Origin: Candidatus Woesearchaeota archaeon
GTDB lineage: Archaea > Nanobdellota > Nanobdellia > Woesearchaeales > JAGVYU01
Direction of reading: 5' to 3'
Length of the DNA stretch: 64,000 bases
Assembly: GCA_043810355.1 (NCBI GenBank)
Contig: JBDROB010000075.1
Coordinates: 16,565-80,564, forward strand
This document shows, one piece after another, positions 1 to 61,779 of the stretch (positions within the stretch are counted from its first letter, which is position 1; each line of letters opens with the position of its first letter). Under the pieces are notes generated by a model. It was not told the DNA's origin and ran no database searches. It worked only from the letters and a program-made list of their open reading frames with translations. The translations under genes and the position numbers were made by a program.

Positions 1-464
1 GAATTGATACATTTAAAAGATATGACCAACACAAATTAATTTGGAAACTTTATATTCGGGGAAAAAGAAATATTTTAAGGTTTTACAAAGAAATCGGATT
101 CTTATTTGATTATAAGAATAAAAAGTTGGAGTATGTGGTGTATAATTATCAGAAAGACAGTTCATTAACAGATTTTGTCCCATTTATTTCTGATTATATT
201 AGGAATATATGTAATCATGAGTTTATACAAAAGCATAATTTTGATAGGTATACAAATATGAGGGATAATCATCAAAAGGTCACAAATATTGTCATGTCTA
301 AAACAGGATATGATCTTACTAGTATGTTTGAATATATTCTTCATTATAATTATCTTTTTGAGAAAGTAGTAAGTATTCAAGAAGCTGGTATAAAAAGAGT
401 TTTCTCAATTAAAGTTAAAAGTGACTGCCATTCATTTATCTCAAATGGGCTTATTAGCCACAAC
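1..464 (+). mobile_element. Intein inserted at the gyrA-a site (after the catalytic Tyr, before the TEARL Thr). Only the C-terminal ~154 aa are in the window: a homing-endonuclease-like region plus splicing blocks F and G.
   Basis: '...[22 protein letters not shown]|TEARL' has the block G terminal His-Asn (codons 459-464) followed by the +1 Thr at 465. This is the same site as the mycobacterial GyrA inteins. Confidence 0.7.
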
Positions 465-2819
465 ACAGAGGCACGCTTAAACAAATTAGCTGAAGAGATG
501 CTTGTTGACATTGATAAGAAAACAGTTAAGTTTGTTCCAAACTTTGATGAAAGTCTTGAAGAACCATCGGTTCTTCCTTCAAAAGTGCCTAATCTTCTTG
601 TAAATGGTTCATCTGGTATTGCAGTGGGTATGGCTACTAATATTCCTCCTCATAACATGTCTGAGATATGTGATGGAGTTATCCATGTTATTGATAATCC
701 TGAAGCTACATCAAAAGAATTAATGGAATTTGTCAAAGGACCAGATTTCCCTACAGGAGGGATAATCCAAGGTGTTATAGGTCTTAAATCAGCTTATAAG
801 ACTGGCAGGGGAAAGATTATAGTTAGGGCTAATCATAAGATTGAAGAGTTAAAAAAGGATAAGAATAGGATTATCATCAATGAGATTCCTTATCAGGTTA
901 ATAAGTCTATGTTGATTGAGGAGATTGCAAATCTTGTTAAGGATAAGAAAATAACAGGAATCTCTGATTTACGGGATGAATCTGACAGGGATGGCATGCG
1001 AATTGTCATCGAGCTTAAGACAGGAGCTAACCATGAAGTTGTTGTAAATCAATTGTTTAAGCATTCAAGATTGCAGATAACTTTTGGGATTATTCTTTTA
1101 TCTCTTGTTGATAACCAGCCAAGAGTGCTTAGTTTGCCTATTATGATCAAGGAATTCATTAATCATAGGCAGGTTGTTGTTAGAAAAAGGACTGAATTTG
1201 ATTTGACAAAAGCTGAGGATCGTGCTCACATTTTAGAAGGATTGATCATAGCCTTAAACAACATTGATGAGACTGTGGCTCTAGTTAAGAAATCAAAGAC
1301 AGTTGATGAGGCTAGAAATGCATTGATATCAAGGTTCTCTTTGACTGAAAAACAGGCTCAGGCAATTCTTGATATGCGATTGCAGCGCCTGACAAGCTTA
1401 GAGCAGGATAAGATAAAAGATGAGCATGATAAACTACTTGAGCTGATCAAGGAGTTGAAGGGGATTTTGGCTGACGAAAACAGGATTCTGTCAATAATCA
1501 AATCTGAACTAAGGGAGTTGAAAGAAAATTATGGTGATGAAAGGAAGACTGTCATCAGTGAAAAAGAGAAGGAAGTCATTGATGATGTAGATCTTATCCA
1601 GTCTGTGGATATGGCAATTACAATTAGCAATAATGGTTATATCAAGAGGACTCCTTTGAATATTTATAAGAGTCAAAAAAGGGGAGGTAAAGGTATTATT
1701 GCTGCTACAACAAGAGAAGAGGATTTTGTCTCTGACTTGTTTATTGCCAATACTCATGATTACATTTTATTCTTCACAGAAAAAGGTAATGTTCATTGGA
1801 AAAAGGTTTATGAGATCCCTCTTGGTGCAAGACAGGCTAAAGGGACTCCAATTGTAAATTTATTGAATGTTAAGGATGAAGGAAAGGTTACTGCATCAAT
1901 CCCTATCAAGGAATTCAGGGATGATGAATATCTTGTAATGGCAACTAAAAAAGGCATTGTAAAAAAGACAAGCCTTATACAATACTCAAGGCCTAGAAGA
2001 GGGGGTATTATTGCGATTGTTATTGATAATGATGATGAGCTAGTCGATGTTAGACTTACAGATGGTTCAAAAGATATACTTTTGGCTACAAAAAAAGGTC
2101 TGGCTATTCGTTTTAATGAAAAGGATTGCAGGCCTATTGGAAGGGTCTCAAGAGGTGTAAGAGGCATTTCCCTTAAAAAAGATGATGAGGTTGTTGACTT
2201 GATCACTTTGGAAGAAAATACTTCAATACTTACTGTGACTGAGAATGGATATGGTAAGAGGACTGATGTTGAGGAGTATAGGAGGATTGGTAGAGGAGGA
2301 GTTGGAGTAATAAATATTCAATGTGATGAAAGAAACGGCAATGTTGTTTCTGTTAAGAGTGTGCTTGATGTTGATGAGATCATGGTCATTAGCAGGAATG
2401 GGATAACCATCAGGATTAAGTCAGAGGATATATCAATCATAGGCAGGAACACAAAAGGAGTCCGTATCATGAGGCTTGGAGAGAATGATAAGGTTGTAAA
2501 AGCTGCCAAGATCATAAAGGATGATCATGATGATAATAACAATAATAACAACAATGACCACAATGACAATAATGCTAATGATAAGGATGATGAAGAAAAA
2601 GAAGTGGATGATAAAATTAATAACAAGGATAATATAGGAAAAGATATTGATGATAATATTGAAGATGACCAGCATGATAATGACCAACAAGATGATGAAA
2701 AAGATCAATACAATGAACCAAAAATACTAGAGTCTGACATAAACAAGACTGCTGTGGAGCAAATCAATGGGGATAGTCCAGAAAATGAAGATAATGAAGA
2801 ATTTAAAGAAAATGAATAA
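1..2819 (+). CDS. gyrA: DNA gyrase subunit A, 5'-partial. The frame is open from base 3 (no stop before the listed Met at 126). An intein C-terminal portion is followed by the GyrA C-extein from Thr at 465, and the protein ends in an Asn/Asp-rich low-complexity tail.
   Basis: C-extein '[13 protein letters not shown]...[24 protein letters not shown]...EIPYQVNK...[18 protein letters not shown]...[14 protein letters not shown]' matches GyrA at high identity. Translation from base 3 gives I D T F K R Y... with no stop codons. Confidence 0.85.
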
Positions 2820-2918: not shown

Positions 2919-4109
2919 ATGAAAAATATGAAAGCATTAGCAATAACATCGATTGGAATTGAGGATATATGTTCATTAGAGATAAAAGACTTGATCAATA
3001 CAGATTCAGAACCACATAAAGGATGTGTTGAGTTTAATATAAAAAAACATCAAGACCTGTTCAAACTTTGCTACCTTTCCCAATCCAGTTCTAGAATTCT
3101 TCTATTATTGTCAAATTTCATGGCAGGGTCATCAAAGTCAGGAAAGTCTGAAAAGTCAATAAAGTCAGTATTCTTGAATGAGCTTAAAAAAAATATTTCA
3201 AAAATTGATTTTAGTGAATGGCTTGATGATAATATTAGGTTTGCTGTAAAATGCCAGAGGATAGGAATCCATGATTTTAATTCAGTTGATATTGAGAAGA
3301 CAGCTGCTGACTCAATCAATGATTACAAGGCTAAAGTGGATCTTAAGAGTCCAGATATGATTATATACATATATTTGATTGACAATGAATGTTATATTGG
3401 AATTGACTTTTCTGGAAAAGACCTGAGCAAGCGTGATTACAAGATTTTTAGCAACATCCGCTCGCTTAAGTCAAATATTGCTTATTCATTGGTCAGAATT
3501 GCAGATTTTAGAAAAGACCAGATTTTGATTGATCCTTTCTGTGGTTCAGGAGAGATTCCGATTGAAGCCACTATTTATGCATCAAACTTTCCTCAAAATC
3601 ATTTTTCAAAAGACTCTTTTGCTTTCTTGAATTTTCCAATGTTCAAGGATTTTGATTTTGACGAGTTCTTTGATAATATTGATAAGAATATCAGGCAAGA
3701 TAAAACAAATATATATGCTTTTGATAACCAGTTAAAGAATATACTGGCTGTGAAGAAAAATGCAAAGATTGCCAGTATCCAGAAATATTTGTCAATATCA
3801 AGGGTGGATATTGATTGGCTTGAGACAAAGTTCAAGCAGAACTCTGTTGATATTATTATCACTCATATTCCAGATGTTCCTAAGCACAATGATCCAAAGC
3901 CAATCCTCAATGTTTTGGATGACTTTTTCTGGGAGGCAGAATTCATTCTAAAACCATCTGGTTCAATTGTCACAATCTCAAGAAGCATTGAATCATTAAA
4001 GCCACCTATTAAGAAATATAAATTCACAATCAAAGAGACCAGAGAGGTTTGGCAGGGAAAAGAGAGATTGATTGTCTTAAATATCCAGAAAAATAAGCAA
4101 CCTTTATAA
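2919..4109 (+). CDS. THUMP-domain class I SAM-dependent RNA methyltransferase (Trm14/RlmL-like, COG0116 family) with a degenerate motif IV.
   Basis: N-terminal 'ALAITSIGIEDICSLEIKDL' THUMP-like region. Motif I 'LIDPFCGSGEIPIEA'. The expected (D/N)PP(Y/F) is replaced by 'IITHIPDV'. Confidence 0.55.
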   Translation: MKNMKALAITSIGIEDICSLEIKDLINTDSEPHKGCVEFNIKKHQDLFKLCYLSQSSSRILLLLSNFMAGSSKSGKSEKSIKSVFLNELKKNISKIDFSEWLDDNIRFAVKCQRIGIHDFNSVDIEKTAADSINDYKAKVDLKSPDMIIYIYLIDNECYIGIDFSGKDLSKRDYKIFSNIRSLKSNIAYSLVRIADFRKDQILIDPFCGSGEIPIEATIYASNFPQNHFSKDSFAFLNFPMFKDFDFDEFFDNIDKNIRQDKTNIYAFDNQLKNILAVKKNAKIASIQKYLSISRVDIDWLETKFKQNSVDIIITHIPDVPKHNDPKPILNVLDDFFWEAEFILKPSGSIVTISRSIESLKPPIKKYKFTIKETREVWQGKERLIVLNIQKNKQPL

Positions 4110-4135: not shown

Positions 4136-4483
4136 GGAAGGGAAATTAGCTTACGGTGGCTCTTTGGAGTCATTGAGGAAAGTCCGCCCACCATTCGCTC
4201 TGATTTATCATTGCGATTATAGCCACTCATGGGAATGAGTTGCAGTGATGTGAGGCAACCGCTCAGAAACGATACCGCCTTAAGGTATAGGATGAAATCC
4301 GTGAACCGCTTGGCAACAAGCGCAAGTTAACCGGAAGACGTTCTTAAGGAATGGATGAAACGGCGAGTCCAGGCTGGTGCAAGTAGATTATCTACGCTTA
4401 GTTAAATGCTAACCAGGCTATCAAATAAGGCGCTAAGTCTTTTTTATCAAGGGCCTGACAGAAGGCGGCTTATTCCTTTCCTA
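4136..4483 (+). ncRNA. rnpB: RNase P RNA (archaeal type), about 350 nt. Ends are approximate.
   Basis: CR-I 'GAGGAAAGUCCGCC' at ~4177-4190. CR-V 'ACAGAAGGCGGCUUAUUC' at ~4457-4474. The P4 strands CCGCC/GGCGG pair. P1 pairing 5' GGAAGGGA (4136-4143) with 3' UCCUUUCC (4474-4481). An oligo-T tract follows at 4486-4496. Confidence 0.72.
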
Positions 4484-7484: not shown

Positions 7485-7720
7485 GGGTGGCTGCCGGGAC
7501 TTTCATGGAATGAATTAACATTTCAATTTGAACCCGAACTCCAGGATAACTGCATGAATCCACAGTCCTATGTACTAGCCAGGTTATACTACAGCCACCA
7601 ATGATTCTTTGCTCAGTTCATGGCCAGGTCGTGGGATTCCGAGCAAAGCGAGGAAATCCCACTTAGCTACCTTGATCAAACTTAGAAAGTTTGGCCAAGT
7701 TATACTACAGCCACCATAAG
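7485..7720 (+). ncRNA. Candidate structured ncRNA, possibly signal recognition particle (7S/SRP) RNA. Ends are uncertain.
   Basis: 5' GGUGGCUG is complementary to the 3' CAGCCACC, which is present twice (7594-7601 and 7712-7719). Internal helices include gggacuuucaugg/caugaauccacaguccu. The 'CCAGGUC...AGCAAAGC' segment at ~7624-7650 resembles the SRP helix-8 consensus CCAGGUC...AGCAGC. TATA-like 'tataaatt' lies ~25 nt upstream. No ORF. Confidence 0.4.
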
Positions 7721-9108: not shown

Positions 9109-9510
9109 ATGCAAGATAGAAGAAATCTAAGATGGGGAATTGCACACATATATTCTTCATATAATAATACTATAATCCATATTACAGACATAACTGGAAC
9201 AGAAACACTTGCAAGAACTTCAGGAGGAATGGTTGTTAAATCTGACAGGATGGAGTCTTCTCCGACTGCAGCAATGATCGCCTCTAAAAAAGCTGCAGAG
9301 ATAGCAAAAGATAAGGGAATTGATGGTATCCATGTTAAGATAAAGGCTCCTGGAGGTCACAATGGCCCAAATAATCCAGGACCTGGAGCTCAAGCTGCAA
9401 TCAGGGCTTTGTCCAGGATGGGATTGAAGATTGGAATAATTGAGGATGTAACTCCTATACCTCATGATGGTTGCAGGAAAAAAGGCGGTAGGAGAGGGAG
9501 GCGTGTCTAA
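9109..9510 (+). CDS. rps11: 30S ribosomal protein S11 (uS11).
   Basis: '[35 protein letters not shown]...[23 protein letters not shown]'. Confidence 0.9.
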
Positions 9511-9511
9511 A

Positions 9512-10297
9512 ATGGAAATAAGTTTTTTGGGCAAGGATGAAAAACATAACAGGGTATCTTTTATCTTAAAAGGAGCAGATCCTACAATAGCTAACACCAT
9601 TAGAAAAAATATTATTGAAAGTGTTCCAACAATGGCGATTGATGATGTTGAATTTAGAAAAAACAGTTCTGCATTATATGATGAGATAATTGCACACAGG
9701 CTTGGTCTGATCCCTATTAAGACTGATCTGAAAAGTTATGATTTGAAACAAGGATGTAAATGCAAAGGTGAAGGCTGTGCTCGTTGCAGTGTGAAAATGA
9801 CTTTGTCTGAAAAAGGTCCTGGTATTGTTTATGCTTCAAGTATCAAGTCAAAGGATTCTCAGATAAAGCCAATCTTTCCAAAGACTCCTATTGTGAAATT
9901 GATCAAGAATCAGGAATTGGAGTTTGAGGCAACAGCTGTTTTAGGGATTGGAAAAGACCATACAAAATGGTCTCCTGGCCTTGCTTATTACAAATATCTT
10001 CCAATTATTGAGATAAAAGGCAACATTGGTGATCCTGAAAAGATTTGTGAGATATGTCCAGTTGATGTTTATGAAGTAAAGAACAGCAAACTTGTAGTGA
10101 ACAAGGATAAGATTAATGATTGTCATTTGTGCGGTGCTTGTGTTGATATCGAGCCTAATATCAGCATTAATGAGTCAGATAAGGATTTTGTTTTTTATGT
10201 CGAGTCTTGGGGACAGTTATCAAATAAGGATATTGTTGTTAAGGCTTTGGAATTAATGGATGAAAAACTTGATGAATTTGATAAGCTCCTCAAGTAG
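9512..10297 (+). CDS. rpoD: DNA-directed RNA polymerase subunit D (Rpo3) with a 4Fe-4S ferredoxin-like insert. The start is adjusted to the ATG just after the S11 stop.
   Basis: 'MEISFLGKDEKHNRVSFILKGADPTIANTIRKNIIESVPTMAIDDVEF'. Cys cluster 'CEICPVD...CHLCGACV'. Confidence 0.85.
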   Translation: MEISFLGKDEKHNRVSFILKGADPTIANTIRKNIIESVPTMAIDDVEFRKNSSALYDEIIAHRLGLIPIKTDLKSYDLKQGCKCKGEGCARCSVKMTLSEKGPGIVYASSIKSKDSQIKPIFPKTPIVKLIKNQELEFEATAVLGIGKDHTKWSPGLAYYKYLPIIEIKGNIGDPEKICEICPVDVYEVKNSKLVVNKDKINDCHLCGACVDIEPNISINESDKDFVFYVESWGQLSNKDIVVKALELMDEKLDEFDKLLK

Positions 10298-10310: not shown

Positions 10311-10436
10311 GCGAGGGTGTCAGAGTCTGGTCAAATGACTACGGTTGAGGGCCGTAGGCCTTAGTGGCTGCGCGGGTTCGAATATCCCAGAGGGAGACTA
10401 CAAATCCCTCAGGATTTGAAAGTCCCGTCCTTCGCA
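10311..10436 (+). tRNA. tRNA-Leu (anticodon GAG), type II with a long variable arm. It has a ~40-nt non-canonical intron in the T-arm region (between T-loop and 3' T-stem, ~10384-10423). No encoded CCA.
   Basis: Acceptor GCGAGGG / CCUUCGC (one G-U) plus discriminator A. D-stem UCA/UGA. Anticodon stem UACGG/CCGUA with loop UUGAGGG. Variable arm GGCCUUAGUGGCUG. T-stem GCGGG/CCCGU flanks the T-loop UUCGAAU. The intervening 40 nt form their own hairpin (GAGGGA/UCCCUC). Confidence 0.6.
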
Positions 10437-10530: not shown

Positions 10531-10893
10531 ATGAAACGAACAGGACCAACAAATCCGAGGTTGAATTTCCTCATATCAGAGTTAAAGAAAGTTGGTAGTA
10601 TCAAGAAGATCAATCTGTTTAAGAGGCTTGCATTTGATCTTGAAAAATCTACAAGAAATAGAAGAATTGTTAATCTTTCAAGGATCAATAGGCATACTTC
10701 TGATAATGAAACAATTGTAATTCCAGGAAAAGTTCTTGGTGATGGTTCTTTGGATCACAAATTGACAATTTATGCTTTTGATTATTCAAATGGTGCAGTC
10801 TCAAGCATTGAGAATGCTTCTTCAAAAGCTTTGAAGATAGAGGAATTGCTGAATTCAGAGATAAAAGGTAAGAAAATCAGGATTATAGGTTGA
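10531..10893 (+). CDS. rpl18e: 50S ribosomal protein L18e.
   Basis: 'TGPTNPRLNFLISELKKVG...IVIPGKVLGDGSLDHKLTIYAFDYS'. Confidence 0.85.
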   Translation: MKRTGPTNPRLNFLISELKKVGSIKKINLFKRLAFDLEKSTRNRRIVNLSRINRHTSDNETIVIPGKVLGDGSLDHKLTIYAFDYSNGAVSSIENASSKALKIEELLNSEIKGKKIRIIG

Positions 10894-15222: not shown

Positions 15223-17061
15223 ATGTCATTTGTAACAATCATATTATTCTTCATCTACATATATGGCTTAGGTTTCTCTATAACCTATTTTTTAAAGAAC
15301 TCTGAAAATTTCTGGGAAAGGAATATTATGAGATTAGGAATTGGATTAGGGGCATTCCCATTACTAGGTGTCCTGATCAACCTTCTCAGAATACCATTGG
15401 ATTGGAAAGTATTCCTTGGAATAAGTATTATACTTCCAATTGCTTTATACTTGTGGAAAAGGAAAAATCCTGATTTCAGCTCTGCTTTCAAGATTTCAAA
15501 ATCAAATATTTATATTCTTCTTGCTTTGATCATCTTCATAATCCATCTTGTTGTCTTTGTCCAAGGCTCATATGCTTATCCTTTTCATGAGGATGATGAC
15601 TCTTGGGAGCATGCAAGGTCAATAAAATATGTTGCTGAGACAAAGACTGCTTTTGAGCCAAAAGACAATAATATTTTTCATTATATTGATTCTTACCCTC
15701 CTGGATATGATATTCTGATGGGTATGTTTGTCCAGACTAGTGGTTCAGTCTATTGGACTATGAAATTTATGAATTCTTTGATTATTTCCTTAGGAATCCT
15801 TTTCTTCTATTTCTTTGCAAAAATATTCACTAAATCAAGAAAAAAAGCATTGTATGCCACAATTGTGTTAGCCCTTATTCCTTCATTCCTAACACATTTC
15901 ATTTGGGCTTATGGAATGGCTATTATCATGATTTTTCCATTATTTTATTGTCTTGAGATGATAAATTATGATAAAAAATGGATGTATCCATCTGCAATAG
16001 TTTTTGCAGGGATGTCTGTGACACAGCCTACCTCAACATTAAAGATTGGATTGATGTATATCATATATTGGATTATCAAGGTCTGGAGAAAGCATCCAAG
16101 TGCAAAAAAGATACTTGTTGCAGGAATTTTGGCTGTGATCCTTTCAACAGCATTTTGGTGGGGTCCTATGTTTATAAAACATGGTTGGCCTGATATTTTA
16201 CATTATGGACTTGATGTGAATCAGACTGGAAGAGATCCTTCAATCCTGAAGATTCAGGGTAGTGATGATCGTATCTTTCCGCCATCTGATTTCTTTTTTG
16301 CTAAAAAGACCAATATGATCAATGCTCCAAGGGGTTGGGGAATTGCTATATCATTGATTCTTATCTTGTCTTTGATATACATAGGATTTAGAAGAAGATC
16401 ATTGTTAAAAGAGGTAAATTTGTGGCTTCTGATAACAGTTGTCTGGTTTTTTTACATGCTTATCGGCTTGGAAAGCTATGCTCTTCCTGTCCAGATGATA
16501 GCCTTTAGATACTGGGCTTTGCTGGCAATCCCAGTTGCCTTGCTCACAGCTGAAGGGATTTTCCTTATTATCTCATTGCTGAAAGGATTTAAGATACCTC
16601 CTATTGCAACATTGATAGTCTTAATTTTGCTGATATTTGCAACTGCTGGCTATCATAAATATATTCATAATACTTCACCTAATTGGCCTGCAGGAACTGG
16701 TTGGTCTTCTCCTGATGAACTCCAAGGTTATCTCAATCTAAGAGACCTTCCTTCTGGAACAAAAATATTTACATTGACTCCTGCTGGAGATGCTTGGCTT
16801 ACTGGCTATGATATGTACACTTGCGGTTGGTGCAAGGATGAGTTGGATTTCAAATCCTCTGCAGTCAACAAGTCTCCTGAAGAAATCTACAATTTCATAA
16901 AGCCAAAGGGCTATGAGTATTTTATCCTAGACACAATTACAGCTGGTTATTATGGTGCTGACCAGACTAAAATTTTGATAGAAAAAACCCTGAACTCAAC
17001 TAATTTCATACCTCAGCAAAAATTCTCCACAAATGGCATGATTTTGTTTAAATTGTCTTAA
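15223..17061 (+). CDS. GT-C fold integral-membrane glycosyltransferase (ArnT/PMT_2-like, GT39/GT83-type).
   Basis: First-loop acidic motif 'HEDDDSWEHARS'. '...YPPGYDIL...SLGILFFYFFAKIFTKSRKKALYATIVLALIPSF'. At least 11 TM segments. Confidence 0.6.
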   Translation: MSFVTIILFFIYIYGLGFSITYFLKNSENFWERNIMRLGIGLGAFPLLGVLINLLRIPLDWKVFLGISIILPIALYLWKRKNPDFSSAFKISKSNIYILLALIIFIIHLVVFVQGSYAYPFHEDDDSWEHARSIKYVAETKTAFEPKDNNIFHYIDSYPPGYDILMGMFVQTSGSVYWTMKFMNSLIISLGILFFYFFAKIFTKSRKKALYATIVLALIPSFLTHFIWAYGMAIIMIFPLFYCLEMINYDKKWMYPSAIVFAGMSVTQPTSTLKIGLMYIIYWIIKVWRKHPSAKKILVAGILAVILSTAFWWGPMFIKHGWPDILHYGLDVNQTGRDPSILKIQGSDDRIFPPSDFFFAKKTNMINAPRGWGIAISLILILSLIYIGFRRRSLLKEVNLWLLITVVWFFYMLIGLESYALPVQMIAFRYWALLAIPVALLTAEGIFLIISLLKGFKIPPIATLIVLILLIFATAGYHKYIHNTSPNWPAGTGWSSPDELQGYLNLRDLPSGTKIFTLTPAGDAWLTGYDMYTCGWCKDELDFKSSAVNKSPEEIYNFIKPKGYEYFILDTITAGYYGADQTKILIEKTLNSTNFIPQQKFSTNGMILFKLS

Positions 17062-38001: not shown

Positions 38002-39831
38002 CTATGTATTTTCCTCTCCCTCACCTATAATTGTTCCTTCACCTTCAGTTGCTGTGACCTCTCCACCTTCAGCTGCCACTTGCTGTGCTTGAATCATTTC
38101 CATAAATTTTGCCATATTCGAGCAATCATCAATCTTATTATTTTTTACAATACTGACTACTTGGTTGTTAAACACTTCACTCATCCCATTTGTCAAGAAC
38201 ACAGCTCTTACAAGATTATTATATTGTATAAATGCAGGAGTCCTGCTTGCATCTGGATGGATGTCAAAAACATAATAATCAAAACTGCAGATATCCATTG
38301 AAGAGAACTTAAGTGACATGTCACCAAATTCTTCATTATATTCCCATTCATGCCTGCCGAACTCAAACAATCCTTTCCTGTAAGGATATCCTGGAAGACT
38401 ATCCCCTGGCCTCTCAGTGTTATAATAGGGAAGGACTGTTCCATTCTGTACTGCTCTTTGATATTCTTGATCCTGCCAATTGATAAAGAAGTGGAATCTG
38501 TGGCTGTTCCTCAATATTGCATCCTGGTCATAGATATCTCCATAAAAAAAGTAAACTTTAGAATCAATTGGAGTATTGTCTGATATCCATGTTATTGCTT
38601 CCCAATGATATGGGTCAATTGCGCTGAACTGGCTAGGTTTGTCATAATAGGCATATATGATGCTAAGCAACAGCACTAAACTTATAATCACACTATACAT
38701 TGTTTTCCATTTGATTTTTGCAAGGCTCTTGACCAATATAATAAGATAATAAACAGCAATCCCAAAAAACACTGCTAAAAATATTGGAAAAAAGAATCTT
38801 GATTGGAATGCTTTCCTGAATCCTATGAAATTAAAACTTCCCATCATAAATCCGAAGAATCCAAATAATAATGCATAATCAATTCCTTTCTTGTCAATCA
38901 GCTTCTTCACCAATATAATTCCAGAGACCACCATCCCAATTATCACAATTATTGAGATCAATTTAAACTGCTGAAAGATTGTGGAATATGTGACATTATT
39001 GTATATTGGATTTCCAACTCCCACAAACCTTAGGAATCCATTTGGAAAAAACCCTGTCCCTCCATTTGATCCTTGTTGAATATCACCAACTACATAAAGA
39101 AGAACAAATATTATTGAATAATAGATTGGCAAGACTACACCAACTGCTCCTCCAATAATTATATTTTTTATATCCTTTAGTTTCAGTCTGTGATAGATGA
39201 ACTTAATGGCAACAAATGCGCCGACTATCCCAACAATATAGAAATATTCTATTCCATGTGCAATCATTGTGACTCCCCAGAAAATTCCAAAAAATATCCA
39301 GCTCTTTTTCAGTTCTATTCTTGAGAAAAACCATAATACTCCTATGACAAAAAGGTTTGTTATGAAAAATGGCCTTGACCCAAACCTTATTCCAATAAAG
39401 AATGGATCAATGAACACTAACAGCATCAATGGAAGGGAGAGCAGGGCCACATTCGTGTTATATTCCCTAATGATCACATAAATGAACAGGCAGCTGATAA
39501 TAGTGATTATGATTGTTACAAAGAATATCACATCATACACTTCTAATCCTGAAGCAATTGAAAATGCAGCACTTATATAATATAGTCCTGGAGGATAGAA
39601 ACCTACTACATCATGATATCCAGTTGAGCCATAGAATGGATTGAACTTATAGCTTCCCTCTTCTTTGACCCAGTCTGTCTTTGGCAGATGTTGGAATGCG
39701 TCTGATGCAAAGTCTCCATGAGGATAGTCATGCCTGAGGCTATTGTCATAGAGTGCAAACCCTACCCACATCATCACTAGAACAAATACTACAAGATAGA
39801 TTTTCTCAATATTAATCTTAAATTCTTCCAT
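38002..39831 (-). CDS. GT-C-like membrane protein with a C-terminal soluble domain (putative glycosyltransferase).
   Basis: 'DYPHGDFASDAFQHL...FYPPGLYYISAAFSIASGLEVYDVIFFVTIIITIISCLFIYVIIREY' ArnT-like. Confidence 0.5.
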   Translation of the reverse strand: MEEFKINIEKIYLVVFVLVMMWVGFALYDNSLRHDYPHGDFASDAFQHLPKTDWVKEEGSYKFNPFYGSTGYHDVVGFYPPGLYYISAAFSIASGLEVYDVIFFVTIIITIISCLFIYVIIREYNTNVALLSLPLMLLVFIDPFFIGIRFGSRPFFITNLFVIGVLWFFSRIELKKSWIFFGIFWGVTMIAHGIEYFYIVGIVGAFVAIKFIYHRLKLKDIKNIIIGGAVGVVLPIYYSIIFVLLYVVGDIQQGSNGGTGFFPNGFLRFVGVGNPIYNNVTYSTIFQQFKLISIIVIIGMVVSGIILVKKLIDKKGIDYALLFGFFGFMMGSFNFIGFRKAFQSRFFFPIFLAVFFGIAVYYLIILVKSLAKIKWKTMYSVIISLVLLLSIIYAYYDKPSQFSAIDPYHWEAITWISDNTPIDSKVYFFYGDIYDQDAILRNSHRFHFFINWQDQEYQRAVQNGTVLPYYNTERPGDSLPGYPYRKGLFEFGRHEWEYNEEFGDMSLKFSSMDICSFDYYVFDIHPDASRTPAFIQYNNLVRAVFLTNGMSEVFNNQVVSIVKNNKIDDCSNMAKFMEMIQAQQVAAEGGEVTATEGEGTIIGEGEENT

Positions 39832-53176: not shown

Positions 53177-56100
53177 TTATGCTTCCGTTGTATTAAATTC
53201 TCCACCAATCATATCACTTTCATTTATCATGACATCTTCACTACTATTGATTATTTCAATCTCAATATTTTCAACATTATCAATCCTAGTTGCATTATAT
53301 TCCTCCTCACTGATTTCCTCAATTGTCACTGTTTGCTGGAAAAAAGGATAGACATTCTCCTGTTTTCCTTCCCAGTCAACTTTCCAGACAACTATCCTCT
53401 GTCCCAAGACACTGTTCTCTTCACTGAATTTTTCAAAATGTTTTGTTCCATGCCCATCTAAGAAATATAATTGAGTGAATATGCTGTCAGTCTGCTCGAC
53501 ATTTGTTATGAGCCTTGAATAACCATCCTCAGTCGGTATCATCAGGACACCAAAATCCCCTCCATTCTCATAGTCCTTGGTGATTATTCCAGTCTCATTC
53601 AGTATGACTAATCTCTTAGGTTTCTCTATGCCTTGAGCTGAACTGAATACCAATTCCATTGATGTGGAGTTAAACAGTCCGGCGCCCCCTCCAAACAATG
53701 AGCAGATATACATCCCATCTTCTCCTGGTGTGCATGGATCAATTCCAGATGCATAGCTTGGCCAAGGTGCTGTCCAGTCATTTGCATCCCTTCCAGTTCC
53801 CAATGATTGAATTTCCAAATAAATTGCTTGGGCTTCATCATCTGTCATGTTGAATTCATCTTTTAGGTATTTGACACCTTTGTCCATATCAAGATTATTA
53901 TCTTTTATTGTATTGTACATTGTTGATCTCCTGAAATTCCAGATTCCAAAATGTCCCCAAACTCCGCTTTTTCCTATCATGTCAGATGAGGTTATAAAAT
54001 ATGCTTCCGGAGGCTCACAGTGTGTATATTCCAGTACATTTTCTGCCTGTTCTTCATTAAGCCCATACCCTTTCAATATTCTTCTTGCATCTTCTTTCTC
54101 TAAAACAATTATTTCATAGATTATATCTACACTCTTGTATGTCTCATTTATTATTTTGTCAAGCTCGTCAAATGCATTGTTGCTGCCGCAGTCAAGCATT
54201 CTTAATAATCCTACACTGACATCTTCATCAGATGTAAGGAGTGAATTGCCTACCCAATGGGCCATTGGCGAGTCTTGTGATGTTCCATCAAATGTTACAG
54301 GTCTGTCAGCAATATATTTGAACCAATGCCCGAAATCCCACCATGATGTTATGATTGCATTATTCTCACTCTCAAGCCTTATCTTTTCTAATGAGCTCCA
54401 CCATGCATCTGTCATGCTTGGTATTTCTTGATATGCTGTTGATTGTCCAGCCTGCAGAGGTTTGATAAGGATTATGGATAACAGTACAATGATGACTATT
54501 TGTGTGATTAGTTTGTTGATCTTTAATTCCTTTGATATTATTTTGACAACATACTGGTATATTATTCCCAAGGCAAGTCCTACTGCAATTGAAAATGCAG
54601 GGACAAATAACAATATGAATCTTATTCCTTTTATTCCAGAATATACTGTTGCAGCAAACCAAAGAACTAGCAGGATGCTGTATTTGATATAAGTCAATCC
54701 ACCATCCTTTTCTTTGATCAAAGCGATTACTCCTTTTATAAAAACAAGCACTATTCCTAAAACACTCAGGTAAAATAAGAATGCACCTCCTATATTCCCG
54801 ATCACTTCAGGAAATGATGATTCATTCTGCTCAGCAACTGTTGTGAATACATTTGGCCAGACAGATGTTGCCCCAATTTGCTTTAATGTGACAAATCCCA
54901 TAGGTTTTTCAACTACTGTATAGAACTCATTGAATCCTAGAAACATAGTGATAAAAATGCCTGAGAATAGTATGAACATAATTATGATGATAATATTATT
55001 TTTAACAAATTTTAATTTAAATATCTGGTTGATTTTTATCCCTTTTTTATAATTTAACATTAAGTAAACTGCTAGATAGCCAACAATATATATTATTGTA
55101 GATATTATCACAAGATAGAATATATACCACCATCCTCCTGCCCATGCAAAACCAAGAAGGCCGACTAAAAAGCCTGATAAGGCAGAATATATTATTTTCT
55201 TTTTTAGATCTTTCTCTTCAAACGCAATTAAAAAGAACCATGCTATATATAATGGCAATGTCACATTGTAAGCATCTGTATCTGAAAACCCGCCCATTGT
55301 CCTGTTGATAAATGCGCTGTGGATTGCAATTAAAAATCCAGCTACAAATCCTCCATAATTCCCTGCAAGCCTTCTTGTGATAAAAAATCCAGGGATCACT
55401 GCTAAAGCACTGATAAGAATTGGTATAAGGAAAATAAAACTCATTAGATCTAGGTCTCTGTTGAAAAACTGGAATGCTTTAAATAAATAAGCAGAAAGAT
55501 AAGCATGGAACATGTCAGGTACAATAAATCTTCCTAATGGTGCAAACATGTGATTATCAAATGGCTTTCCATCCCTTAGCTCGTCTCCTGGATGCCCATT
55601 GTTAATTATATTTCTTGCATGTCTTGTCCAATAATAAGGGTCAATTGCCAATAGGTAAGTGAATTCTCCGATAACCTCTCCTTTGCTGTTTGTGATATCT
55701 CGCCTTAATCTTGATTTAAACTGGTTTGATGAAGCTGATATTGCATTATCAACTTCCTTTTTGTTTTCACTCAGGATTTTTTCAAACTCTTTCTCAATTA
55801 TTTTTGCTTTATTCTCATCAGGAAGATTTGGATATTCATTATTGACTTTATTCTCAACCTGGGCTCTTATCCCATTATATATATTGTCTCTTGCCCAAAC
55901 ATCTGTTATCGGCAATATTGCTGACTGATATCTAAGATTAGCGCTGAAATAGACACAGAACAGTAGTGAAAATATGATAAGGATTGTTGGAATGATCCAA
56001 GGTTTATTTTTTATATACCCATAACCTTTTTTTATTGATTTTGTCACATCAGAAAATTCTTCATCCTTTTCTTCATCTTTGCTTTCTTCCTTTTTGTTCC

Positions 56101-56476
56101 CCTTTTTGAAAATATTTTTTATACCGGAAAAATCAATGTTGAAATCCTCATCTTTCTCTGCCTTTTCATTATCTTCAACAAAATCTTTCTTTTCCTTGAT
56201 AATTTGCATTTTCTTCTCAGCTTCTTCAGTCTGCCTTTTCTCCTTATTGTAGCCAGGTTCTTCAGCTTTCTCACTAATATTTTCAGCCTCTAATCTCCTT
56301 AGCTCTTCTTTTTTCCTCTCTATCTCTTCATGGATATCTTTTTTATCTTTTTTCTTCTCATCCAGAGATTTATCATCATCGCTAAATGATTTACCTACTT
56401 TCTTGAAGAATCCTTTTACTTTTTTTATATCAAATGAAATCTCTTCATCATCAAAATCATCATCCAAAGACATCAC
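53177..56476 (-). CDS. aglB: Oligosaccharyltransferase AglB (STT3 family) with an unusual ~165-aa Lys/Glu/Asp-rich N-terminal cytoplasmic extension. GTG at 56476 and ATG at 56473 are both candidate starts.
   Basis: 'ITSWWDFGHWFKY' (WWDYG motif). First-loop 'LLAIDPYYWTRHARN'. 13 TM segments plus a large C-terminal domain. Confidence 0.85.
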   Translation of the reverse strand: MMSLDDDFDDEEISFDIKKVKGFFKKVGKSFSDDDKSLDEKKKDKKDIHEEIERKKEELRRLEAENISEKAEEPGYNKEKRQTEEAEKKMQIIKEKKDFVEDNEKAEKDEDFNIDFSGIKNIFKKGNKKEESKDEEKDEEFSDVTKSIKKGYGYIKNKPWIIPTILIIFSLLFCVYFSANLRYQSAILPITDVWARDNIYNGIRAQVENKVNNEYPNLPDENKAKIIEKEFEKILSENKKEVDNAISASSNQFKSRLRRDITNSKGEVIGEFTYLLAIDPYYWTRHARNIINNGHPGDELRDGKPFDNHMFAPLGRFIVPDMFHAYLSAYLFKAFQFFNRDLDLMSFIFLIPILISALAVIPGFFITRRLAGNYGGFVAGFLIAIHSAFINRTMGGFSDTDAYNVTLPLYIAWFFLIAFEEKDLKKKIIYSALSGFLVGLLGFAWAGGWWYIFYLVIISTIIYIVGYLAVYLMLNYKKGIKINQIFKLKFVKNNIIIIIMFILFSGIFITMFLGFNEFYTVVEKPMGFVTLKQIGATSVWPNVFTTVAEQNESSFPEVIGNIGGAFLFYLSVLGIVLVFIKGVIALIKEKDGGLTYIKYSILLVLWFAATVYSGIKGIRFILLFVPAFSIAVGLALGIIYQYVVKIISKELKINKLITQIVIIVLLSIILIKPLQAGQSTAYQEIPSMTDAWWSSLEKIRLESENNAIITSWWDFGHWFKYIADRPVTFDGTSQDSPMAHWVGNSLLTSDEDVSVGLLRMLDCGSNNAFDELDKIINETYKSVDIIYEIIVLEKEDARRILKGYGLNEEQAENVLEYTHCEPPEAYFITSSDMIGKSGVWGHFGIWNFRRSTMYNTIKDNNLDMDKGVKYLKDEFNMTDDEAQAIYLEIQSLGTGRDANDWTAPWPSYASGIDPCTPGEDGMYICSLFGGGAGLFNSTSMELVFSSAQGIEKPKRLVILNETGIITKDYENGGDFGVLMIPTEDGYSRLITNVEQTDSIFTQLYFLDGHGTKHFEKFSEENSVLGQRIVVWKVDWEGKQENVYPFFQQTVTIEEISEEEYNATRIDNVENIEIEIINSSEDVMINESDMIGGEFNTTEA

Positions 56477-57945: not shown

Positions 57946-60390
57946 ATGACTAATAAAATTAAAGAAATCAAACAAGATTATGTTTCTAGAGCAACATACA
58001 AGGATTTGGATGCAACTCAAGCAGATGCAATTTATAATGCATTTCAGGCAACAACACATAACAGTGAAGGGAAAAAACTTACTCTTCAAGAAAGAAGAAA
58101 ATCAGTTGCTGACGAATTTGGTGTCAAGTATGGTACTGTCGGAACAGTTGCAAGATACCAAGGAAGAGATTCCTCACAATTAGATAGGTCTGTTTCTCAA
58201 TTATCAGAAACAGATATTGAAAAAGCTCGTCAGAGATATAAACATTCTGATGATTCTGTTGATACAATTTTAGGAGACCTAAATCTTACTGCAAAGGCTT
58301 TTTATTCAGGAGTACTTGAAGGTTTTGATTATAGGAGAAGTGATGATAAGCCTCGTCTGGCAAGGATGGCAAAAGCTCGGCAAAAAGCTAATGGATATAC
58401 CACTTCTCCAGCTGACATAGCTGAAGTTGTTGATGCACCAGAAGATCAGCCTGCTTTCAGATATCTTGCTGAACCTCAAGAAAGTTCTGCTAAACCAGGA
58501 AATCAAACAAAAAGTATAGAATCAAAATCAATTGTTGACTTTAGTTATGATAATCCAGATCAATCTGTTGTTGACACTAGATTAATAGGTCATTTTTTAG
58601 TTTCAAAAGCTGCTTCAGCAGAAAGGCATGGGGATCATGGACCAGAAAGTGGACCAGTAACTCAAGCAAAGCCTTTAGAAGCTGTTGTTGGAGAAGCTAA
58701 TCCAGTTTATGCAGGGGGAAGAGTTCCTGATGATTCATCAAGGTCCAAATATGTTTCTGATGTTAGAACTCCTGAAGTTACAATGCATGCACCAGATGGT
58801 CCAAGAGCTGAGGGAAGAGGTCCTTCTGATGATTCTCATGCTCGAGGTGATGCTAGTGGCCATGATGACAGAGTTATTTTAGGAGAAGATCATAGTTCTA
58901 GACCTGTTGAAGAACCAAGGTATTCAGGCAGTGGCTCAGGAGATGGTTCAGGTGGAGACAGTTCATTACCTCCAGAAAGTACAGAAAGACCAGCCAGAAT
59001 TTGGTATCAAACTTGGAAAGGTAAATTAGTATCAGGTTTGACTGCTGCTGCAATGCTTGCAGTTTCATTTGGTGGCGGATGGTTTGCTCGAGGAATGTAT
59101 AATCCAAGTCAAGCTGCTGCTGGATCTCTAGATCCTGCTCCTATAGCTGCTGAAGCGCCTGAAGTACCTACACATCCATTAGGAGGAGTCATTCCAGGTT
59201 TCCCAGATCCTAATTCAATTGAAGATCATGTAAAAAGCCAATATAATGGAGAAGGTGGATTTGATTTAAGAAAGCACTTATGGGAGACTCTTGTTCCAGG
59301 TTCAGAAGATTCTGGAAGAAAGCCTTATACAGGAAGTTCAGAACAGAATGAGGCATTCTTAATGTTTTTGAGGACTTTGAATCCTGATATGGTTAAGGCT
59401 GCAGTTGCTTCTTACGATGCACCAGAAGAACCTGCTGCTCCAGTTGTCCAACCGGCACCAATACCTGCAGAGAACCCAACTGTAGCACCTGTTGCACAGT
59501 CAGCACCAGCAGCTCCATTGGCAGGTTTCCCAGATCCTAATTCAATTGTTGACTGGCTGACAAGTAATTATAATGATGCTGATCAAGGATTAAGAGCATA
59601 TTTATGGGAAGCTTTTGCTCCTGAACCAATCCAAAGAAGTTTAGGGGATGAATATCAAGGAAGATCATTGACACCTGAACAAAGGCAATTACAAAATAAT
59701 TGGTTACTTGGATTCTTAAAAATGAGAAATGATCAAAGACCTCAAGATATTACTGAAGCGATTGCTGATTATAGTCTTGGAATAGAAAGTGGAGCGCCTT
59801 TAGAGGCTTATGAAGGATCAGGTTCAGAAGAGCAACCAACTCTGGCACCTTTAGAGGAGATTACAGTAGGTGGACCTGCCGAAGTTATTGTTCCTCCAGC
59901 AGTTTTAACTGCAATCCAGATTCAAAATATTGGAGACATGTTTGAGATCCCTTTCAGAGGAACTTCAATTTATAATTTGAGTCAGATTGATTCAAGTGAT
60001 AATAGGCTACCAAGCAATCCAACACCTGTTTCAGCTTTAGTGGGTAACTATGATAGTAATGCTGACGGAAATATTGACAGTGTTGCTGAGTTGAGCACAT
60101 TCATTTTAGGATTGACAACAAGAGGTGGGCTTGATTCCCCTGTTCCAGGTGAGTCAGATGAATCTTTTGTTAGGCTTGTAGCTAATGCTGGTTTTGGACC
60201 AGATGTCGCTTCTCAATTAAGGTCTGCATTAAATACAGAGGAAGTCTCAAATGAAGAATTGAATAGGGCTTCAGAAGTTGCTTTAAGATTAGGGGCTGCT
60301 ATTCAGACAGAGACTCCATTATATGATAATGGCACAGATTTAGTGATTGCAGAACCAGAAATCGCAATTAAATATTTTAATGGATTTTAG
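57946..60390 (+). CDS. Membrane-anchored protein. It has an N-terminal cytoplasmic region with an HTH-like segment, one TM helix, and an extracellular domain with two ~90-aa 'GFPDPNSI' repeats and a dockerin/EF-hand-like Ca-binding loop. GC is higher than the surroundings.
   Basis: 'LTLQERRKSVADEFGVKYGTVGTVARY' HTH-like. TM 'LVSGLTAAAMLAVSFGGGWFA'. Repeats 'GVIPGFPDPNSIEDHV...' and 'APLAGFPDPNSIVDWL...'. 'YDSNADGNIDSVAELSTFILGL'. Confidence 0.55.
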   Translation: MTNKIKEIKQDYVSRATYKDLDATQADAIYNAFQATTHNSEGKKLTLQERRKSVADEFGVKYGTVGTVARYQGRDSSQLDRSVSQLSETDIEKARQRYKHSDDSVDTILGDLNLTAKAFYSGVLEGFDYRRSDDKPRLARMAKARQKANGYTTSPADIAEVVDAPEDQPAFRYLAEPQESSAKPGNQTKSIESKSIVDFSYDNPDQSVVDTRLIGHFLVSKAASAERHGDHGPESGPVTQAKPLEAVVGEANPVYAGGRVPDDSSRSKYVSDVRTPEVTMHAPDGPRAEGRGPSDDSHARGDASGHDDRVILGEDHSSRPVEEPRYSGSGSGDGSGGDSSLPPESTERPARIWYQTWKGKLVSGLTAAAMLAVSFGGGWFARGMYNPSQAAAGSLDPAPIAAEAPEVPTHPLGGVIPGFPDPNSIEDHVKSQYNGEGGFDLRKHLWETLVPGSEDSGRKPYTGSSEQNEAFLMFLRTLNPDMVKAAVASYDAPEEPAAPVVQPAPIPAENPTVAPVAQSAPAAPLAGFPDPNSIVDWLTSNYNDADQGLRAYLWEAFAPEPIQRSLGDEYQGRSLTPEQRQLQNNWLLGFLKMRNDQRPQDITEAIADYSLGIESGAPLEAYEGSGSEEQPTLAPLEEITVGGPAEVIVPPAVLTAIQIQNIGDMFEIPFRGTSIYNLSQIDSSDNRLPSNPTPVSALVGNYDSNADGNIDSVAELSTFILGLTTRGGLDSPVPGESDESFVRLVANAGFGPDVASQLRSALNTEEVSNEELNRASEVALRLGAAIQTETPLYDNGTDLVIAEPEIAIKYFNGF

Positions 60391-60402: not shown

Positions 60403-61779
60403 ATGAAAGGATATGATATGACCAGAAGGGGATTTTTAGCAGCAGCAGCAACTGCATTAGCAGGATGTGCAACAACATATGATCAATCTCAACTATCAGG
60501 ACGACATCCAGTTCCTGGACAGAGAGAACCTACTCCTATAGGAGATCAAGCTTTGTCTTTAGAGGCAAAGATTCCAGAAGGGGATGTTGCAGTTCTTTAT
60601 GATTATGTCAAGGATCACCTTCCAGGTGGAGACAGATATTTTGTTCCGTTCATTGAGCAAGGAATTGCACAAGCCTTTGCAGGTTATGTTCCAGCGCCGG
60701 CAAAAGCTGGAGTAAGAAATATTAATTTTGGAGACAATGAAAGGACTGGTTTTCTTTCAAAACCTGAATCTGCAGCACTTTACACTTATTTGTTTGAGAG
60801 ATTTATGGAAGATGTCCAGCAGGTTGCTCATCTTTCAATTAATCCAGAGAGGACAAATGGTGTTACAGACGTTTTTGTTTATCATAATGGGCCAAGGATG
60901 CCGAGCATTAATTACACTTCAAGAGAAGTGAAAGGTTGGAATAAGAAGACAACTGAGAAAGATACTGTTTACAATTCAATTGATCTTTGTTTTACAAATG
61001 CTGTTGAAGTCAGGCATAAGGTAAGGAATTATAGGGGTCCTGTTGAGTTTTTTATCAATGCAGCTTTGCAGGGATATAATACAACAGCTTCTCTTGGTGA
61101 GCCAATTATTGGTGTCGCTGGTTATACTGCAGGTGCAGCTACAAGAGGGGCATTGACATGGCTTTTCCACAAAAAGGATGAGCAAGATGCATTCTATGAT
61201 GCTAATGTTGATCTTGGTTGGGGTTCCCAGAATCTTGGACCAGCTCAGAAGATGTGGGAGACATTGAGCAATCATAATATGGAAAGCCCAGTTGTCTATC
61301 TGGCGCCTATTGAGTCAAAACCAGGAAGTGTAGATACAATGTTGATGGTTCTTGCAAATAATCCTAATTTTGCAGTACAACCTTTTCCAACACCAAATTA
61401 TGATCCAGAGACTGGAAGAGTCATGGGTATGAATATTGTTTCACCTCCACAGTATGGTGATAATTTTGCAAAGAATCTTGTTATAAGTATGTTGGGAGAA
61501 ATGGCAGATGCATATGTTAGGGGCTTGTTGATTGAAGATTTGATCCTTGATAAGCTTGAGGATGACAAGCAATTGCTGCCTTTTGGAGTTCCGATTCCAA
61601 TTACAAGGATTTTACCTTTGATAATGCCTTTGCCGATTCCATTCTGTCCTAGACCAAGTCCAATGATAGGTGGAGGTTGGTTTGGAGGCGGTGCTTTTGG
61701 AGGAGCAGGTTTAGGTGGAGCTGGACTTTTAGGAGGAGGATTTACTGGTGGAGGAGCGTTAATTCCAGGTCCATTATAA
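60403..61779 (+). CDS. Secreted Tat lipoprotein with a bacterial-type lipobox and a Gly-rich C-terminal tail. Function unknown.
   Basis: 'MTRRGFLAAAATALAGCATT' has the twin-arginine and the L-A-G-C lipobox. C-terminal 'GGGWFGGGAFGGAGLGGAGLLGGGFTGGGA'. Confidence 0.6.
   Translation: MKGYDMTRRGFLAAAATALAGCATTYDQSQLSGRHPVPGQREPTPIGDQALSLEAKIPEGDVAVLYDYVKDHLPGGDRYFVPFIEQGIAQAFAGYVPAPAKAGVRNINFGDNERTGFLSKPESAALYTYLFERFMEDVQQVAHLSINPERTNGVTDVFVYHNGPRMPSINYTSREVKGWNKKTTEKDTVYNSIDLCFTNAVEVRHKVRNYRGPVEFFINAALQGYNTTASLGEPIIGVAGYTAGAATRGALTWLFHKKDEQDAFYDANVDLGWGSQNLGPAQKMWETLSNHNMESPVVYLAPIESKPGSVDTMLMVLANNPNFAVQPFPTPNYDPETGRVMGMNIVSPPQYGDNFAKNLVISMLGEMADAYVRGLLIEDLILDKLEDDKQLLPFGVPIPITRILPLIMPLPIPFCPRPSPMIGGGWFGGGAFGGAGLGGAGLLGGGFTGGGALIPGPL

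Follow-up and report, generated by a model that had tools for sequence, protein, structure and literature searches.

A tRNA-Leu(GAG) gene of Woesearchaeota with a predicted 40-nt bulge-helix-bulge intron in its T-loop, next to rpoD

According to the archaeal bulge-helix-bulge (BHB) rule, as it is quoted in PMC8450103 from Marck & Grosjean (2003), a 4-bp helix lies between two 3-nt bulges and the cuts fall after the second nucleotide of each bulge. In ARMAN-2 (Ca. Micrarchaeum), an intron at position 59/60 was described in pre-tRNA-Cys(GCA), and introns at 53/54 and 59/60 in pre-tRNA-Pro(GGG) (Fujishima et al. 2011, PMC3239211). A survey that included a Woesearchaeota genome associated the L3-loop splicing endonucleases (EndAs) of DPANN archaea with numerous disrupted tRNA genes (Kaneta et al., PMC5829648). 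As far as the accounts in PMC4033280 and PMC3239211 go, many non-canonical or multiple tRNA introns, as well as intron transposition, are found in the Thermoproteales (Sugahara 2008; Fujishima 2010). In the case of the Caldiarchaeum subterraneum tRNA-Thr(GGU), close relatives differ in intron content at one tRNA locus (Sugahara et al. 2012, PMC3293823); there, the intron-containing gene is preceded by a stray 5′ tRNA fragment, and a 1.8-kb recombinase-encoding element was implicated (PMC3293823). Among the detection programs, tRNAscan-SE 2.0 looks for non-canonical introns by default, with BHB models trained on Cren-, Eury- and Thaumarchaeota (PMC8450103).

We analyzed a 64-kb stretch of DNA, here called the window. 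Positions 10311-10436 of its forward strand very probably constitute a functional Woesearchaeota tRNA-Leu(GAG) gene whose location, between rpoD and the L18e gene, is conserved and which has a single 40-nt BHB-type intron at tRNA position 59/60. The evidence in hand is the exon/intron anatomy, the identity of the predicted product with uninterrupted genes, and a cloverleaf and a BHB register that are conserved and covary. The likeness to ARMAN-2 is in the DPANN superphylum, the 59/60 site within the T-loop, the BHB-type motif on the T stem and the shortness of the intron, whereas Cys and Pro tRNAs are interrupted there and a class II Leu tRNA here, and the lineage here is Woesearchaeota. The EndA would differ as well, being ε2 in ARMAN-2 and, in the literature on Woesearchaeota rather than from this genome, of the α4 type with an L3 loop (PMC5829648). 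In comparison with a canonical 37/38 BHB intron, the predicted enzymology and the 3-4-3 geometry are the same, but here the T stem is the outer helix and T-loop nt 54-57 provide the central helix. Since 59/60 introns are known in ARMAN-2, and disrupted tRNAs in DPANN, the window gene is well supported, but it is no surprise to a specialist.

The gene lies in a cluster with the order S13-S4-S11-RpoD-[tRNA]-L18e-L13-S9-RpoN. The features needed to place it, together with two genes further upstream, were as follows.

2919-4109, forward strand: THUMP + RMKL-like methyltransferase gene (Pfam), directly upstream of the RNase P RNA gene
4136-4481, forward strand: archaeal RNase P RNA (Rfam)
9464-10297, forward strand: rpoD, RNA polymerase subunit D (mechanical ORF), ending 13 nt before the tRNA
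10531-10893, forward strand: ribosomal protein L18e gene (PF00828, 23.2 bits, cut-off 21.5; PF17135, 23.1 bits, below its cut-off of 28)

The location between rpoD and rpl18e, as given by the first-pass annotation, was recovered, with 13 nt separating the tRNA gene from rpoD and 94 nt from the L18e gene; the L18e assignment, above the PF00828 cut-off, is a weak one. The mechanical start of rpoD at 9464 overlaps S11 (end 9510) by 47 nt, and since the NCBI RpoD has 261 aa, the true start is probably a Met near 9512. An NCBI protein under the name 'Candidatus Woesearchaeota archaeon' matched RpoD with 100% identity, the next relatives being Woesearchaeota or Nanoarchaeota metagenome-assembled genomes; judged by sequence, the host is a DPANN archaeon (Woesearchaeota). 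Neither the 13 nt between rpoD and the tRNA nor the 3′ part of rpoD contains a clear archaeal TATA box. EndA (tRNA_int_endo), RtcB and the CCA-adding enzyme were absent among the 61 ORFs of at least 68 aa of the 64-kb window searched with Pfam.

Two functions in tRNA maturation adjoin in the upstream part of the window, where the RNase P RNA gene follows the THUMP + RMKL-like gene, whose product is probably a tRNA m2G-type methyltransferase. In addition, this DPANN archaeon carries a DNA gyrase subunit A gene (126-2819, forward strand) with PF00521 and six GyrA C-terminal repeats. A large glycosylation/cell-envelope gene cluster extends from about 12660 to 57730 (Pfam), with the following content.

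Within the cluster: several family-2 and family-9 glycosyltransferases, epimerases, dehydratases, a DegT aminotransferase and flippases
53177-56476: STT3/AglB oligosaccharyltransferase of 1098 aa (Pfam)
Within the cluster: two LPG-synthase-TM proteins (Pfam)

The long ORFs at 15223-17061, 38002-39831, 57946-60390 and 60403-61779 had no Pfam match.

The tRNA-Leu gene itself was resolved into two exons.

10311-10436, forward strand: tRNA-Leu(GAG) gene, 126 nt with the intron included (ARAGORN on deletion constructs and orthologue comparison)
10311-10382, forward strand: 5′ exon, tRNA positions 1-59 (intron-aware alignment to intron-less orthologues)
10311-10317, forward strand: 5′ acceptor strand GCGAGGG (sequence read)
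After the 5′ acceptor strand, forward strand: D arm (sequence read)
Forward strand: anticodon stem TACGG/CCGTA with the loop TTGAGGG (sequence read)
10347-10349, forward strand: anticodon GAG (sequence, and ARAGORN on spliced constructs)
Forward strand: variable arm of 15 nt with the stem GCC/GGC (sequence read)
10372-10376, forward strand: 5′ T stem GCGGG, pairing with 10424-10428 (CCCGU) in the minimum free energy (MFE) and centroid folds, and covarying across orthologues
10377-10382, forward strand: start of the T-loop, TTCGAA (sequence read)
10423-10436, forward strand: 3′ exon, with U60, 3′ T stem CCCGU, acceptor CCUUCGC and discriminator A73
10424-10428, forward strand: 3′ T stem CCCGT (sequence read)
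10429-10435, forward strand: 3′ acceptor strand CCTTCGC (sequence read)
10436, forward strand: discriminator A, A73 (sequence read)

The 5′ exon thus holds the acceptor strand, the D arm, the anticodon arm, the long variable arm, the 5′ T stem and T-loop nt 54-59. The 15-nt variable region with its covarying 3-bp stem, A73 and the GAG anticodon are those of a class II tRNA-Leu, and the ARAGORN isotype of the spliced constructs was Leu. Removal of the intron left all the conserved arms and a 7-nt T-loop. No CCA is encoded, because TAT directly follows A73.

ARAGORN did not see the raw gene, whether or not its intron options were on and even at a lowered threshold, and the unspliced sequence had no Rfam tRNA match at gathering or at E ≤ 10, so that the expectation that standard scans would miss it held for both programs. 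The weak Rfam matches in the region (E = 4.6-9.6) are noise. When 38-42 nt were removed at the T-loop, ARAGORN reported a tRNA-Leu(GAG). As a specificity control, both strands of the 64-kb window were scanned for TTCRAN, 10-120 nt were deleted after loop nt 6 of each occurrence, and a 5-bp T stem was required. Only 2 of the 364 constructs turned into tRNAs, namely the tRNA-Leu, with the intron at 10383-10422, and a minus-strand tRNA-His.

The gene was compared with 80 GTDB loci collected through RpoD alignment, two closer relatives, and 20 metagenome loci collected with a 5′ exon pattern. The predicted spliced RNA was 86 nt long, as had been proposed, and 86/86 identical to the uninterrupted genes on two metagenome contigs (L093 and L095), with which the 5′ exon (10311-10382) is also identical. 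This, together with the ARAGORN call after the deletion, upheld the description of the gene as a type II tRNA-Leu(GAG) with a non-canonical T-arm intron. The identity was 85/86 with the uninterrupted rpoD-L18e tRNA of another Woesearchaeota locus (L022), from which the predicted product differs by an acceptor G-U instead of G-C; the L022 tRNA scores 44 bits on the Rfam tRNA model (threshold 29). When 61 distinct spliced or uninterrupted orthologues were laid on the class II cloverleaf, 99.9% of the cells were paired, with compensatory changes at 15 of the 23 pairs, a figure that was matched by none of 500 shuffles; slid controls were 39-55% paired.

The elements of the intron and of its splice motif are given below.

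10383-10422, forward strand: 40-nt BHB intron at tRNA position 59/60, in the T-loop (BHB register)
10372-10376 with 10424-10428, forward strand: outer BHB helix h, the 5-bp T stem
10377-10380, forward strand: central BHB helix, exon strand UUCG, tRNA nt 54-57 (pair probabilities 0.84-0.94)
10417-10420, forward strand: central BHB helix, intron strand UGAA, pairing with 10377-10380 (conserved register)
10381-10383, forward strand: 5′ bulge A58 A59↓U, predicted cut 10382↓10383 (from the BHB rule)
10421-10423, forward strand: 3′ bulge A G↓U60, predicted cut 10422↓10423 (3 nt unpaired in the MFE and centroid folds)
10384-10416, forward strand: intron body, folding into an inner helix h′ and a distal hairpin
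10390-10395 with 10405-10410, forward strand: distal intron hairpin GAGGGA/UCCCUC with a 9-nt loop (MFE and centroid folds)

The junction of the intron thus combines UUCG/UGAA with the bulges AA↓U and AG↓U, and the exon junction predicted after splicing is GGGUUCGAA↓UCCCGU. Removal of 10383-10422 or of 10384-10423 yields the identical 86-nt product, because a T is present at both 10383 and 10423. The first-pass annotation had given 10384-10423 and a site between the T-loop and the 3′ T stem. Hence, its product and its choice of the T arm were right, but the limits by the BHB rule are 10383-10422 and the actual place is 59/60, within the T-loop. It had also rested the motif on the hairpin GAGGGA/UCCCUC; this hairpin does form in the MFE and centroid folds, but it is only the distal part of the intron and does not define the cut sites. 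Between the hairpin and the central helix, the inner helix h′ consists of 1 bp (A84-U16, that is, 10384 with 10416), a 1-nt bulge (one U) and then 3 bp, UCC/GGA (10385-10387 with 10412-10414).

The MFE structure predicted for the precursor includes the T stem, which is the outer helix, the 3′ bulge and the hairpin of the intron, along with the variable, anticodon and acceptor arms, but the textbook 3-4-3 arrangement was absent from it. A58 and A59 of the window gene are able to pair with U10416 and U10415, which would produce a helix of 6 bp, UUCGAA/UUUGAA, beside a 5′ bulge of 2 nt, and in the nearest-neighbour model this form (-42.4 kcal/mol) was favoured by about 3 kcal/mol over the 3-4-3 form (-39.4 kcal/mol). 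As the 6-bp helix is preferred thermodynamically, the enzyme would need to open or tolerate two A-U pairs. The term 'relaxed' that had been applied to the motif is fair on two counts, the imperfect h′ and the lengthening of the central helix to 6 bp in the MFE, and we would call the motif near-canonical or mildly relaxed; it stands between the ARMAN-2 Pro motif, a strict hBHBh′, and that of ARMAN-2 Cys, an hBH. The BHB core itself (T stem, 3-nt bulge, 4-bp helix, 3-nt bulge) is present and comparatively conserved.

Two other kinds of intron were considered and rejected. Group I and II introns need a catalytic RNA core of hundreds of nucleotides; this intron has only 40 nt and no match to an Rfam intron family. 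The Haloferax tRNA-Trp intron carries a C/D-box guide RNA, but the 40 nt are too short for one and contain no UGAUGA or CUGA box.

A 59/60 intron was present in 11 Leu loci, i.e., that of the window and L081, L083, L002, L008, L009, L011, L039, L073, L078 and L079. These introns are 21-47 nt long and their bodies are unrelated, but the T stem is the outer helix in all of them, and all share the pattern (T stem) UUCR AA↓N ... YGAA NN↓N (T stem). In this register, T-loop nt 54-57 pair with intron nt -6 to -3. The central helix had 4/4 pairs in seven loci and 3/4 in four, and its fourth pair covaries (A-U in 4, G-C in 3, G-U in 2, and a G·A mismatch in 2). For the register test, the set was extended to 13 introns by L102 (a 14-nt intron) and the tRNA-His of the window. 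In this set, 48 of 52 pairs formed in register, a count biased slightly upward because intron-less references were used to fit the intron coordinates of the relatives and, for each locus, the candidate with the best pairing was retained; 10-30 pairs formed when the partner was slid by 1-4 nt, and in 20000 shuffles of the introns the observed value was not reached once. Furthermore, A58 and A59 are unable to pair in 8 of the 11 Leu loci (both can in the window and in L039, and one in L011), which supports the 3-4-3 form as the selected structure.

These data bear on what else the sequence could be. The 40-nt insertion in the T-loop might have inactivated the tRNA-Leu, so that the insert is not removed and another copy decodes. 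That no detector called the raw sequence a tRNA, that no splicing enzyme gene was found inside the window, and that the MFE fold is without a textbook 3-4-3 BHB would all fit such a pseudogene. We nevertheless consider it highly improbable, because the exons match those of L001 with 100% identity, against differences of 6-10% in the flanking genes, and are also identical to uninterrupted genes elsewhere; because the insert is placed precisely so that its removal leaves a 7-nt T-loop, and has a complementary UGAA and a 2-nt spacer, as 12 other independent 59/60 introns do; and because a single tRNA is conserved at this operon position in the 72 resolved relatives, 48 of which are interrupted. 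Chance tRNA-like sequence or an RNA of another class is scarcely conceivable, since the exon halves correspond base for base to a conserved orthologous tRNA, no Rfam family was significant at 10311-10436, and the control scan yielded so few positives; nothing was found in support of it, the noise-level Rfam matches included.

A genuine intron could also be excised in another register or from a relaxed motif (hBH or bulge-helix-loop), leaving a T-loop of different length or sequence. The preferred fold, with its 6-bp helix and 2-nt 5′ bulge, and the tolerance of ARAGORN for many nearby deletions point in this direction. The T-loop UUCGAAU of the uninterrupted orthologues, however, is obtained only with the 40-nt deletion (10383-10422 or 10384-10423), the two As are unpaired in most of the Leu loci as the 3-4-3 form needs, and the pairing is lost when the register is slid, so that we also regard this possibility as very unlikely. 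A functional gene with a BHB-type intron at 59/60 is the reading that we retain.

Transcription, cleavage, ligation and the enzymes involved are parts of this reading that we infer from what is established about tRNAs in archaea. The acceptor, D, anticodon and variable arms of the precursor would fold normally, as would its 5-bp T stem, and T-loop nt 54-57 (UUCG) would pair with the intron UGAA (10417-10420) to give the 4-bp helix with its two 3-nt bulges. With nt 54-57 engaged in the BHB helix, neither the T-loop nor the contacts between T-loop and D-loop would form until the intron is removed. The archaeal splicing endonuclease EndA would then cut after the second nucleotide of each bulge (10382↓10383 and 10422↓10423), and an RtcB-type ligase would join the exons, by which the T-loop UUCGAAU would be restored. 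RNase P and RNase Z would trim the ends, and a CCA-adding enzyme would complete the 86-nt tRNA.

The second positive of the control scan is also an interrupted tRNA gene, with two introns.

7486-7599, minus strand: tRNA-His(GUG), with G-1 at 7599 and C73 at 7486
7548-7559, minus strand: canonical 37/38 intron of 12 nt
7500-7526, minus strand: 59/60 intron of 27 nt

The 59/60 intron has the same BHB pattern as that of the tRNA-Leu (UUCA AA↓U ... UGAA AG↓U CCCGG). ARAGORN and Rfam missed the raw gene, and ARAGORN reported a 76-nt tRNA-His once both introns were removed; hence, both tRNA genes of the 64-kb window are invisible to these two programs. A 17-nt copy of the tRNA-His 5′ end (GGTGGCTGTAGTATAAC) is located at 7699-7715, 116 nt upstream on the same strand, and it is followed (7600-7698) by a strong hairpin, GTGGGATT...AATCCCAC. 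The copy was considered as the mark of a 116-nt D-arm intron in the tRNA-His, but no convincing BHB was found in any register.

At the rpoD-adjacent locus, 72 orthologous tRNA-Leu genes were resolved, 24 of them uninterrupted, 18 with the canonical 37/38 intron only, and 30 with one or more non-canonical introns, located at about 15/16, 17/17a, 21/22, 29/30 or 59/60. Intron sites turn over among about six positions, counting 37/38. Some genes have two or three introns, the canonical one being combined with non-canonical ones in some of the resolved orthologues (L002 has introns at 21/22, 37/38 and 59/60). The intron states were distributed patchily over a rough neighbour-joining tree of RpoD, on which a 59/60 intron occurs in seven or more separate clades. 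The closest genome (L001, JAZDHV010000006.1) has an RpoD 99% identical to that of the window, flanking DNA with 93.9% and 89.6% identity, and tRNA-Leu exons with 100% identity, and its gene was as follows.

L001, 3348-3484: tRNA-Leu gene with a 51-nt intron at about 21/22 (3372-3422), central helix 4/4

A T-loop intron was absent from this L001 gene. In the next relatives a 59/60 intron is present, of 21 nt in L081 and of 28 nt in L083. These sequences are most simply explained by a recent change in the L001 lineage, in which the 59/60 intron was lost and the one at 21/22 gained. A site switch between near-identical genomes provides a clean natural example of rapid intron turnover.

When the Leu and His 59/60 introns of the window, and the 59/60 and 21/22 introns of the relatives, were compared by eye for shared sequence as a signature of transposition, none was found beyond the ends that the BHB imposes (YGAA + 2 nt; GAYY + 2 nt). 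The 72 Woesearchaeota loci are like the Thermoproteales in their many sites other than 37/38, in having up to three introns per gene, and in rapid gain and loss. The Thermoproteales belong, however, to another phylum and have an (αβ)2 endonuclease with a Crenarchaea-specific loop, and, unlike there, no similarity between introns beyond the needs of the BHB was found here, e.g., between the Leu and His 59/60 introns of the window. With the Caldiarchaeum case the locus shares heterogeneity among relatives, and the stray 5′ fragment described there resembles the 17-nt tRNA-His copy at 7699-7715, but no recombinase-encoding element was seen beside the window genes.

Some relatives departed from this arrangement. 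In one locus (L059:3344-3389), a 46-nt D-loop intron holds a near-copy of the downstream exon (GGCCAAATGCACTAGGTTGAGGGCCTA), suggestive of either internal duplication or a different choice of exon. An alignable tRNA-Leu(GAG) within 700 nt downstream of rpoD was missing in L013, L023, L029, L044, L052, L053, L055 and L066, and likewise in L018 and L031, where the contig ends there; in L053 and L044 an intron-containing candidate is present about 1 kb further on. In the relatives that have no alignable copy, the tRNA-Leu may have been relocated or be more heavily disrupted.

With its intron option, ARAGORN missed or mis-named many interrupted orthologues of the tRNA-Leu(GAG) downstream of rpoD (L001-L083), the names given being the following.

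Phe(gaa): L032, L045, L047, L064, L068, L080
Ser(tga): L005
Ala(agc): L046
Gly(gcc): L060
Gln(ttg): L071, L076
Leu(aag): L001
Leu(taa): L024, L067

Such mis-naming is a risk to automated annotation. Where genomes are annotated without a BHB-aware search, Woesearchaeota will look tRNA-poor, which would lead to wrong ideas on a reduced translation capacity of DPANN archaea.

The known picture of archaeal tRNA splicing is unchanged by this gene, the value of which lies mostly in annotation and in a tidy case of intron turnover. The frequencies at the 72 loci extend the high intron load of Thermoproteales and ARMAN to Woesearchaeota, at a single orthologous locus. A bolder idea, which we put forward tentatively and would not ourselves expect to hold, is that the rpoD-adjacent tRNA-Leu(GAG) locus of Woesearchaeota is a record of ongoing BHB-intron mobility, in which the exons stay constant while introns come, go and switch between hot spots (15/16, 17/17a, 21/22, 29/30, 37/38 and 59/60), even between sister genomes. 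If true, an active, site-preferring insertion process, together with precise loss, would operate on protein-spliced introns in DPANN archaea; the insertion might exploit the self-complementary T-loop sequence UUCGAA, and the mechanism of archaeal tRNA-intron gain would become directly testable via population metagenomes.
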